Positions 45,132 through 48,887 of a stretch of 64,000 bases of DNA are shown here, piece by piece. The position numbers and the translations under genes were made by a program. Under the pieces are notes generated by a model, which did not search any database, had not been told where the DNA came from, and saw nothing but the letters and a program-made list of their open reading frames with translations. Origin of the DNA: Thermodesulfobacteriota bacterium. Lineage in GTDB: Bacteria; Desulfobacterota_D; UBA1144; Nemesobacterales; JAJCZQ01. The stretch covers positions 800,001 through 864,000 of the forward strand of contig OZ244044.1 of assembly GCA_965215275.1 (NCBI GenBank), written 5' to 3'. The first letter of the stretch is position 1. The number at the start of each line of letters is the position of its first letter.

Positions 45132-48100
45132 TTAAACGTCAAGATTACTGACGTTCAGAGCGTTAACTTCTATAAATTCCCTTCTTGGTTCTACCTGATC
45201 TCCCATCAGAATGGTAAATAAATCATCGCTTTTAATGTCATCTTCCACTTTGACCTGCTTAAGCACCCTTGTTTCAGGGTTCATGGTAGTTTCCCAAAGC
45301 TGTTCGGGGTTCATCTCCCCAAGTCCCTTGTAACGCTGTATACTGAGCCCCTTCTTGCCCCTCTCGAATATAAAATCGCACAGACCGCCAAGGTTCTGGA
45401 ACTTATGAACTGTTTCCCCATCCACCAGATCATAAGGCTTGGAACCTATGGCTGATATGGATTCACACAGCTTCTTCAGTTCAGCAAAGTACGGTGAGTT
45501 AAGAAAGTCAAAATCGATCGTTACCGATCTGTTCCTTCCGTTCTCTCTGAACGTGTAGTTAATTCTGCTTGAATTGTGCTCGGTATCCTCTTCAAGTGTC
45601 CAGTCAATAGCCTCCACGCTGGGATAGTTTAACTCGACCCAGTCCTTGATCCCCGATAAGTGCACGTCAAGTTCAGATTCGTTTTCCAGTTTCAGATGCT
45701 TTTTCTTGAAATCGCTCCTGTTTGCAAAGGCATCAACGATCTTGGCATCCCATCCTTTTTTTTCTACCTGCTCAAGCAGCCTGCCGTAACTGATGGACCT
45801 TTTGATAATATCAACGAGCCTGCTGCCCTTTATTCCCTTGGAACTGCCGTTAAGTGCCGAAGTGATCTCCAGTCCGTCGGTGCCCAGATGGAGCAGGTAG
45901 TCCTCATATTCACTGTCGTCCTTTAAATACCTGGTGTTCTTTCCCTTCCCGACGCGGTAAAGCGGAGGCTGTGCCACGTAAAGATAGCCCCTTTCAATAA
46001 CCTCGAAAAAATGCCTGAAGAACAAGGTCAGAAGAAGTGTTCTTATATGTGATCCATCAACATCGGCGTCGGTCATCAGGATTATCTTGTGGTAGCGTAT
46101 CTTCGAAATATCAAAATCATCAACACCTATGCCCGTTCCAAGCACCGTTATAGCAGTGCTTATCTCCTCGTTGTTAAGCATTTTGTAAAGCTGGGCTTTT
46201 TCCACGTTCAGGATCTTTCCCCTGAGAGGTAAGACCGCCTGATTGTAGCGATCCCTGGCCTGTTTAGCAGAACCCCCGGCGGATTCTCCCTCTACGATGA
46301 ATATCTCCGCCTTTTCAGGGTCCCTTTCCTGGCAGTCGGCAAGCTTGCCCGGCAGTGAACCGGAATCAAGCACGCTCTTTCTTCTTGTAAGCTCCCTTGC
46401 TTTACGTGCGGCATCCCTTGCCCTTGCTGCATCTGCAGCTTTCTCAACGATCTTCTTGGCAACCGAGGGGTTCTCCTCAAAGAACGTTCCGAGCTTGTCG
46501 TTCAGGAGGGTTTCCACGATACCCTTTACGTACGTGTTGCCCAGTTTGGTCTTTGTCTGTCCTTCGAACTTAGGGTCGGGTATCTTCACGCTTATTACGG
46601 AAGTCAGGCCTTCCCTTACGTCCTCTCCACTCAGGGAAAACTTAAGGTTTTTTAACAGACTTTTATCTTCCGCGTATTTGTTTATGGTCTTTGTAAGAGC
46701 GGCCCTGAAACCCGAGAGATGGGTACCTCCTTCTATGTTGTTGATGTTGTTGGCATAAGTGAAGATCGTTTCGTTATAGGAGTCGTTGTACTGCATCGCC
46801 ACTTCCACCACGGCATCATCTTTTGAACCCTCAACGTAGATAACTTCCGGGTGAAGTGTTTTTCTGTTCTTATTGAGCTCTTCTATGAAAGCGGTAATTC
46901 CCCCCTCGTAGATAAAGTCCTGCTCCCTGCCGTCCCTTTCATCCCTGACGGCTATCTTCAGTCCTTTGTTAAGAAAGGCGACCTCCCGTATTCTGTGGGC
47001 AAGGGTATCATAGTTGAACTGATCTATCTCAAAGATCGTACTGTCCGGCTTGAACCTTATCTTTGTTCCTGTCCTGTCAGTGCTTCCCGTGATCTTTAAC
47101 GAAGTCGTTGCCTCTCCCTTCTCATATTCCTGAAAATATACATTCCCTCCCTTTCTGACCTCAAGCACAAGGGATTCGGACAGAGCGTTCACGACCGTTA
47201 CGCCAACACCGTGCAGTCCACCCGATACTCTGTAGACCTTGCCTTCGAACTTTCCTCCGGCGTGAAGTTGCGTCATAACAACTTCAGCTGCGGATTTTCC
47301 GGAGTCCTCATGTTCGTCCACCGGTATTCCTCTGCCGTTGTCTTCTATCGTGACGCTTTCATCTACGTGAATGGTAACCTTTATCTCGTCGCAGTAACCG
47401 GCAAGTGCTTCATCCACGCTGTTGTCAAGCACTTCAAATATAAGGTGATGAAAACCTCGCGAACTGGTATCGCCAATATACATATCGGGACGTTTTCTCA
47501 CTGCTTCAAGACCTGGCAATACCTTGATCTGCTCTGCAGTATATGAATCAAAAATAATCAATAGCTTACTTTCTGGCGGTTTCTTGATCTGCTCTGCAGT
47601 ATATGAATCGCCTACGGAAACTTTTTCTTTGGATACTTCGGTTTTACTACCACGGTTGTCGTATACTTTGGCATCCAGTTCTAGCTTTTTAGCCTTGTCA
47701 AAATCTTTAATCGCAAGATCTTGTTCTTTCTTTTCAGTGTATGCACTGCCACGGTTGTTGTATGCTAAAGCATTCGGTTTTATCTTTAGTGACTCTGTAT
47801 AATCCGCAATCGCACGATCATATTCTCCCTTCTTAGCGTATGAACTACCACGATTGTTGTATGTTAAAGCATTCGGTTCTATATTTAGTGAGTCCGTATA
47901 ATCCGCAATCGCACGATCATATTCTCCCTTCTTATCGTATGCATAACCACGGTTGTTGTATGCTTCAGTATTCGGTTTTATATTTAGTGAGTCCGTACAA
48001 TCTGCAATCGCACAATCATATTCTCCCTTCTTAGCGTATGATCTGCCACGATTGCTGTATGCTAAAGCATTCGGTTTTATCTTTAGTGAGTCCGTATAAT

Positions 48101-48887
48101 CCGCAATCGCAAGATTATATTCTTTTTTACGAAAATATGCATTGCCACGGTTGTTGTATGCTTCAGCATTCGGTTTTATCTTTAGTGACTCCGTACAATC
48201 CGCAATCGCACGATCATATTCTTCCTTCATAGCGTATGAACTGCCACGGTTGTTGTATGCTTCAGCATTCGGTTCTATATTTATTGACTCCGTATAATCC
48301 GCAATCGCACGATCATATTCCTTTTTACGAAAATATGCATTGCCACGGTTGTTGTATGCTTCAGCATTCGGTTTTATATTTATTGACTCCGTACAATCCG
48401 CAATCGCACGATCATATTCTTTCTTTCTAGTGTATACATAACCACGGTCTTTGTATGCTTCAGCATTCGGTTCTATATTTATTGACTCCGTATAATCCGC
48501 AATCGCAAGATCATATTCTCCCTTCTTAGCGTATGAACTGCCACGATTGTTGTATGTTAAAGCATTCGGTTTTATGCTTATTGACTCCGTATAATCTGTA
48601 ATCGCACGACCATATTCTCCCTTCTTAGCGTATGCATAACCACGGTTGTGGTATGCTTCAGTATTCGGTTCTATATTTATTGACTCCGTACAATCCGCAA
48701 TCGCACGATCATATCTTCCCTTCTTAGCGTATGAACTGCCACGATACTTGTATGCTAATGCTTTTATTGTTCCATCAGTTTCTAATTGGTTAATTTTTTT
48801 AGTACAGCTAGGGATTAACTCATCCAACTTTTGCTCTCTAAGAAGTTTGTCTGCTTTTTGCTTAAATTCTTGTAGTTTATCACTCAT
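45132..48887 (-). CDS. gyrB: DNA gyrase subunit B with an N-terminal array of 11 TPR repeats
   Basis: [73 protein letters not shown]; single ORF with the TPR array. Confidence 0.93.
47523..47609. repeat. 27-bp direct repeat of the gyrB 5' end at the TPR junction
   Basis: cttgatctgctctgcagtatatgaatc at 47523-47549 and 47583-47609 (DSYTAEQIK twice). Confidence 0.92.
47646..48761 (-). repeat. 99-bp tandem TPR-coding repeat, 11 units plus a partial unit
   Basis: 33-aa unit A.AYNNRG..Y.KK.EYD.AIADYT.S..I.PN; high DNA identity between units. Confidence 0.95.

Follow-up and report, generated by a model that had tools for sequence, protein, structure and literature searches.

A single open reading frame (ORF) of 1251 aa, without internal stop, joins an array of tetratricopeptide repeats (TPRs) to a complete DNA gyrase subunit B (GyrB) in a Thermodesulfobacteriota bacterium (assembly GCA_965215275.1, contig OZ244044.1). 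It occupies positions 45132-48887 of the reverse strand in the window studied here, a stretch of 64,000 nucleotides (positions 800,001 to 864,000 of the contig). Coordinates are those of the window, except those prefixed G000, which refer to the genome as a whole. Read in the direction of transcription, the locus comprises the following features:

48965-49522, reverse strand: dcd (dCTP deaminase), the conserved upstream neighbour of gyrB in the genomes G001, G002 and G003 (Pfam DCD, synteny).
48940-48964, reverse strand: what is left of the ancestral dcd-gyrB spacer, covering the first 25 bp or so past the dcd stop; the match of a sister organism ends at 48953 (alignment to G001 and to the joint in sequencing run X10).
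48888-48939, reverse strand: incoming leader, of which 48888-48910 match the leader of a TPR-DUF2971-like paralogue, G000:895279 (alignment).
48759-48887, reverse strand: ATG and 43-aa N-terminal cap, common to the TPR-DUF2971-like family, with no hydrophobic signal peptide visible (alignment, direct sequence reading).
47670-48758, reverse strand: eleven AT-rich TPRs of 33 aa, with conserved scaffold and variable groove positions (profile and repeat analysis).
47640-47669, reverse strand: truncated twelfth repeat, with the fusion point at its end (repeat profile, alignment).
47610-47639, reverse strand: retained native GyrB leader codons ~11-20 (alignment to P0003, P0005, P0002 and G001).
[quoted passage not shown]
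45132-47549, reverse strand: complete GyrB body, with the second arm copy (47523-47549), GHKL ATPase, transducer, TOPRIM, insert and tail (Pfam, NCBIfam, motifs).

Residues 447-1251 match GyrB over its full length (TIGR01059, PRK14939 long form). The match passes TIGR01059 (977.6 bits against a cut-off of 882.4) and stays below both ParE cut-offs (TIGR01058, 744.6 against 899.95; TIGR01055, 592.3 against 723.35). The GHKL ATPase, the TOPRIM acidic motifs and the C-terminal tail are intact, with motifs at aa 485, 516, 542, 556, 866, 887, 940 and 1185 in addition to the Pfam domains. The two parts differ in composition: GC is 38.6% overall and 31.5% at third codon positions (GC3) in the TPR part, against 47.3% and 54.3% in the GyrB part. 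The ORF, the TIGR01059 match and the GC and GC3 values thus confirm what a first-pass annotation of this DNA had claimed, a TPR array and a complete GyrB in one frame with the TPR part more AT-rich. With its full-length match, all its catalytic motifs and a GyrA partner, the protein resembles any DNA gyrase subunit B. It differs in having lost the native Shine-Dalgarno (SD) sequence and start, and in the 446 extra residues that precede its working N-terminal arm (eleven TPRs, a linker and a duplicated arm), where the usual GyrB has a short leader and the arm. The predicted mass is 141 kDa, of which the TPR domain makes 46 kDa.

The genome (G000) is a single 1.99-Mb contig, 99.87% complete. Another gyrB and a gyrA were sought over the whole contig, as the first-pass annotation had suggested: the fusion is the only gyrB, and there is one gyrA (a single PF00521 match in an 812-codon frame, far from gyrB). 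The same search found no ParE, and no topo VI A was found in the genome; E. coli, unlike the present genome, also has topo IV. The ratio of non-synonymous to synonymous substitution (dN/dS) of the GyrB part is 0.047 against G001 over 465 codons, which is strong purifying selection. Relative-rate counts of 12:11, 17:18 and 22:19, none of them significant, indicate no acceleration. The idea of a neofunctionalising paralogue, also raised in the first-pass annotation, is therefore excluded, because the genome holds no other gyrB and this one evolves at a normal rate.

A chimeric assembly was the other concern, since arrays of tandem repeats assemble poorly and none of the listed pieces covers this one from end to end; the count of eleven repeats comes from the assembly and from tiled pieces. 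The TPR-GyrB junction is crossed with 0 differences by short-read contigs of runs X3 (46800-47788, depth 67) and X4 (47000-47788, depth 601), and also by a depth-4 contig of X5, from another study. The dcd-TPR side is likewise crossed by other zero-difference contigs of X3 and X4, two samples from one study, which may be the source of the genome itself. Pieces of 151 nt in X6, X7 and X8 share identical coordinates and were not counted as independent; runs of which only a small share matched were likewise left out of any argument on habitat or independence. These contigs across both ends of the array rule out a chimera at the junction, and the failure of reads to span it, named in the first-pass annotation as what would undo the fusion, did not occur: the junction is genuine. 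With both ends crossed and no second gyrB, it is extremely improbable that the fusion is an artefact of assembly or an extra paralogue alongside a normal gyrB.

The eleven TPRs are contiguous (aa 44-406, 99-nt period), and repeats 1-10 are identical at 73-93 of 99 nt. The twelfth stops after ten residues, where it is joined to about codon 11 of the native GyrB. The paralogue G000:895279 has the leader, the cap and the type of 33-aa repeat in common with the 5' part of the fusion, at 74% nucleotide identity; it is therefore a relative of the donor and not the donor itself. Its orthologue P0253 is 59% identical in aa sequence over 204 residues. The paralogue matches DUF2971 only weakly (E 0.0042; 18.8 bits where the cut-off is 22), and the C-terminal DUF2971-like domain is not in the fusion, GyrB standing in its place. 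Compared with TPR-effector proteins (TPR-DUF2971-like, FRG-TPR, TPR-TIR), the fusion thus has the same cap and repeat type as G000:895279 and P0253, with a housekeeping enzyme as C-terminal domain instead. Eukaryote-like TPR proteins are known from sponge symbionts, according to the accessible part of one report (PMC13747020); a host-facing role does not fit the fusion, because the protein must be cytoplasmic. Overall, 20 ORFs of the genome match the repeat profile. Genes of the FRG-TPR type lie at G000:C1 968922-970949 and 343804-345441 and at locus L130; one such gene, when tested, matched PADLOC PDC-S15 (E 1e-18) in its FRG part.

Between the TPR array and GyrB lies a lysine-rich linker of 40 residues, predicted to be unstructured. 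In a modelled fragment the first 42 residues have a predicted local distance difference test score (pLDDT) below 50 and the first 34 are without secondary structure, a weak indication as the alignment is thin there. A predicted complex of the TPR part with the GyrB ATPase fragment scored 0.01 and carries no weight either way. Such a linker would lend itself to clipping, by which the whole fusion would be translated and then trimmed to an ordinary mature gyrase. Among the Pfam and NCBIfam matches of the fusion protein there is no intein or self-cleaving domain, and we regard this route as very unlikely.

The ancestral arrangement is apparent from relatives, in which dcd is followed by a spacer of 150-190 bp, GGAGG, a start codon (TTG or GTG), some 20 variable codons and the conserved arm. 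It is also seen directly in a sister organism in run X10, where one contig runs from gyrB (47549) to dcd (48953) with 188 intervening letters. In the fusion the native spacer, the GGAGG SD, the TTG start and the first ~10 codons are gone, and the start of the TPR part matches the TPR-DUF2971-like family; the proposal that a TPR gene captured the 5' end of gyrB is borne out. The first-pass annotation had placed the normal start of GyrB at about YxAxxIxVL, and it missed the duplication of the arm. About 19 native codons of leader and arm were kept upstream of the insert (codons ~11-29), and these are followed by the 33-bp insert and by an exact second copy of their last 27 bp.

In the X10 sister (window 47000-49193), 4 of 241 positions differ on the dcd side against 42 of 550 in gyrB (Fisher P 0.0004), a contrast in divergence that suggests a recombination breakpoint at the locus in one lineage.

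Close GyrB proteins, 92-96% identical, have the usual length, apart from P0002 with its short additional leader, and none has TPRs. Among other genomes of the phylum, 117 of 119 had a GyrB match; none of their open frames exceeded 881 aa, against 1269 here, though contig ends cut some of them short. The GLxAVR motif was found in 72 of 80 named loci, with no more than 87 open codons before it, and none of the 80 gave a TPR match. No other TPR-GyrB appeared among the 120 listed matches to aa 1-480 (the best of 8000 candidates scored, some of the underlying Pfam lists being incomplete), among the 150 listed matches of a junction query or in the 6-member 90% cluster. Nor was a TPR found among 120 listed GyrB proteins longer than 946 aa, 115 of which carry an intein domain. 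Among 485 proteins fetched, 348 match the TPR profile and 138 match GyrB; the fusion alone matches both. Each list gives the head of a long ranking, and a fusion whose cluster is represented by an unfused member could have been missed. Pattern scans of metagenomes gave no other TPR-GyrB. A literature search over titles and abstract openings, with most subscription journals outside its coverage, returned no report of a TPR-GyrB fusion, of a genomic island integrated into gyrB or of supercoiling by MBP-GyrB, no DUF2971 paper among the best matches for DUF2971, TPR and defence, and no relevant paper among the best matches for off-target spacer integration. The search for TPR-GyrB architectures proposed in the first-pass annotation thus returns this one alone within the listed matches. 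On present genome comparisons the fusion is private to one lineage, without an independent origin found within these searches, and likely recent. We regard TPR-GyrB with a duplicated arm as an architecture unreported within the searches made, and as a variant, probably accidental, of a known enzyme.

Among the named records, those nearest bear the label Candidatus Dadabacteria or Thermodesulfobacteriota. Some other irregular loci were met in these surveys. P0207, a GyrB of 994 aa, has about 145 additional residues at its N-terminus; they resemble a real folded domain, have no Pfam match and may be a case of N-terminal accretion. In P0130, P0456 and P0471 the start seems to be over-called or the frame shifted, and the gyrB of a single-contig relative is split into two frames (G021:C1 2185969-2188391), by a sequencing error or a real frameshift. 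Matches to a "double arm" pattern at L077 and L085 were false.

These data can be assembled into a simple scenario. The 5' part of a TPR-DUF2971-like gene would have replaced about 160 bp comprising the spacer, the SD and the first ~10 codons of gyrB, by illegitimate recombination either in one step or as an insertion followed by a deletion. Because gyrB is essential, only an in-frame join would have been viable, and the TPR start could thereafter not be deleted. The array would hang on its predicted-flexible 40-residue linker while GyrB works as usual. According to the accessible part of a preprint, E. coli carrying a chromosomal N-terminal mGFP-GyrB shows only a marginal loss in growth rate, and the fusions, once purified, are able to supercoil DNA; coumermycin sensitivity is altered (bioRxiv 10.64898/2026.08.13.744598). 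That strain and the present organism both have a folded domain on the N-terminus of their only GyrB, and mGFP-GyrB is viable and active; it differs in being artificial and smaller, and in keeping the native promoter. Since mGFP-GyrB is tolerated in E. coli, no function is needed for the present fusion to survive. Our preferred explanation, to which we give somewhat better than even chances, is that the sole GyrB is a working, ordinary enzyme and the TPR array a locked-in passenger from a recent illegitimate recombination. Judged from sequence, a single 141-kDa protein likely serves as the gyrase B of the cell.

How much of the GyrB is made as the long product depends on where translation starts. 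The first-pass annotation had seen no convincing SD and ATG for GyrB alone at the junction. The lack of a good SD is upheld, while an in-frame TTG at 47561, inside the 33-bp insert and four codons before the working arm copy, had been overlooked. Pairing with the 16S tail of the genome gives -9.3 to -11.7 kcal/mol for eight native gyrB starts of relatives, -5.2 kcal/mol for the TPR ATG and a very weak -1.9 kcal/mol for this TTG, the median of random internal start codons being -3.3. Most GyrB could be made from TTG 47561 without TPRs, at native size (~91 kDa), with the fusion as a minor product. The native gyrB starts of this lineage are indeed TTG or GTG, and the 45 nt around TTG 47561 fold weakly (-3.0 kcal/mol), a degree of openness reached by just 13% of in-frame windows, so that some internal initiation is possible. 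Against this stand the poor SD and the fact that the 1.25-kb TPR frame has kept free of stops and frameshifts, although another TPR locus in the genome appears broken (two short ORFs near 1,901,300-1,902,600). We therefore hold this alternative to be improbable. A sigma-70 scan was uninformative (6 sites against 5.9 expected, none passing in the incoming leader 48888-48939); gyrB may possibly be read through from dcd.

The duplicated segment amounts to nine residues within the arm that closes the ATP gate, and the arm is single in 4 of 4 close GyrB proteins. A genome-wide scan for isolated repeat-insert-repeat units with periods of 40-98, outside the two CRISPR arrays, yielded nine units at eight loci, all with periods of 60-72 bp, the gyrB unit having 60 bp. 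The eight further units (period 63-72 bp) lie in ordinary genes (G000:C1 17917, 351219, 631337/631404, 684650, 733506, 739347 and 937979); one is in an S41 peptidase gene, and four lie on loci L148-L151. Eight of the nine are in ORFs and have a length that is a multiple of three (about 0.001 by a hand binomial at one third); the remaining one doubles a junction at which a stop and a start overlap. At its start, an aminotransferase class III gene carries three copies with two inserts, four other units have exact duplications of 35-38 bp, and relatives are single-copy at the three other unit loci that could be aligned. In 1.2 Mb of the genome G002, which likewise has two cas1 genes, eight units pass the filter. 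Two form a short array beside cas1 and six have periods of 77-87, leaving no unit of period 60-72 outside the cas1-adjacent array.

Such units recall off-target integration by Cas1-Cas2, which gives "neo-CRISPR" units (Nivala et al. 2018, as cited in the accessible part of bioRxiv 10.1101/148544). Like those described there, the gyrB unit is an exact local duplication around a short unique insert in a genome with cas1; it differs in measuring 27 + 33 bp and not the resident 36 + 26-32, and in being fixed in frame in an essential gene. The genome has two cas1 genes (PF01867). Its two arrays have repeats of 36 bp, with spacers of 26-32 bp in one and 29-31 bp in the other; we read them as type V-A and type II from the repeats and the gene order. 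Beside the long array, a 1177-aa ORF (G000:C1 6192-9725) lies between a 1265-aa Cas12a-like gene and cas4/cas1-like genes. We consider the eight further units to be probable off-target spacer insertions, and give the same origin about an even chance for the gyrB unit, which would have survived because it was in frame, before or after the fusion. Several observations weigh against this step. The exact duplication is 27 bp (37 + 23 with 4 mismatches), against resident repeats of 36 bp, and several inserts are longer than the resident spacers, that of gyrB having 33 bp against 26-32. No source of the gyrB insert was found in its own genome, and viral contigs gave 0 matches for its 19-mer and 11 for its 17-mer, none extending over the insert. 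Two other origins of the unit were set aside: tandem duplication with drift, as the exact block abuts a block at 21-42% identity, and an integrase att-site scar, as 0 of 11 viral loci with the insert motif had an integrase-like or tRNA match (by a crude query) and the only two PF00589 genes of the genome are far from gyrB.

Over the nine inner repeats of the TPR array dN/dS is 0.95, against 0.30-0.70 in the eight other TPR genes that gave a value (9 tried), which favours a passenger. Several features of the array speak against a mere passenger. The scaffold is conserved (pN, the non-synonymous measure, 0.074 against a synonymous pS of 0.193), with 0 of 14 non-synonymous singletons on the 9 scaffold positions (P 0.007), and the groove positions vary (pN 0.36), a pattern expected of a functioning binder. 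The main objection is that near-identical repeats should collapse in frame with ease, yet all eleven persist; the runs compared list no joint left by such a collapse, their contigs dropping rare variants. This points to youth or to selection. Repeat pairs are not independent, and their differences may predate the fusion or reflect the need to fold; the pattern therefore shows a folded solenoid and not a new function.

If selection did act, the array could be a shield, as the first-pass annotation had suggested, binding toxins or phage proteins or barring them from the ATPase gate. It could also be a sensor that hands a detected ligand on to gyrase, the fusion then acting as an abortive-infection effector; the extra arm could serve as a decoy. 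The eleven retained repeats, with their conserved scaffold and diverse groove, would suit such a role. By their Pfam accessions, close TPR relatives are joined to domains that we take to be of the TIR, FRG, CHAT, kinase, caspase, trypsin and TaqI_C types, so that the architectures of the donor family look modular and defence-like. Both TPR-DUF2971-like genes that were examined adjoin methyltransferase-like ORFs, identified by eye. Moreover, the duplicated segment falls within the arm S2-K14, which the C39 peptidase toxin StbD requires for binding GyrB, according to the accessible part of a preprint (bioRxiv 10.64898/2026.05.07.723447). Against a shield or sensor, the fusion occurs in one lineage only, with no independent origin found, and GyrB lacks the acceleration that would suggest co-adaptation. 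PADLOC gave no meaningful match either, the TPR part having one weak match (E 8e-4, no passing stretch) and the paralogue none. The arm duplication, for its part, needs no adaptive story, because eight units in unrelated genes share its geometry. On balance we find a selected shield or sensor unlikely. We also hold it to be quite unlikely that the gyrase is armed in full, with a defence-type TPR sensor guarding the ATPase gate or turning the enzyme into a ligand-triggered suicide effector, and a misplaced CRISPR spacer having duplicated the toxin-binding arm as a decoy.

Downstream of gyrB, the window holds one further element of interest:

41731-44864, reverse strand: AT-rich type II restriction-modification islet with two EcoRI-family methyltransferases and one GmrSD_N-HNH nuclease (Pfam, PADLOC, G001 alignment).

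The islet sits where G001 has a lipoprotein-like ORF, a remnant of which directly follows gyrB. The first methyltransferase (43926-44864) loses its frame at a run of nine G, near 43980-43988 on the reverse strand, and has a matching C-terminus in another frame; the run is a candidate phase-variable switch in the off state.

If the cell uses the 141-kDa product, a natural 46-kDa repeat domain sits at the ATP gate of its only type II topoisomerase. In that case the locus shows how a piece of an accessory gene, once it has captured the start of an essential one, can no longer be deleted. The ancestral allele can still be seen in a sister lineage, and the fusion is a ready test case for neutral against co-opted capture. 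The junction also suggests that errors of CRISPR adaptation can put peptides of 20-24 residues into essential proteins in nature. Should the TPR array be a passenger only, the fusion would be a striking curiosity and not a new system.

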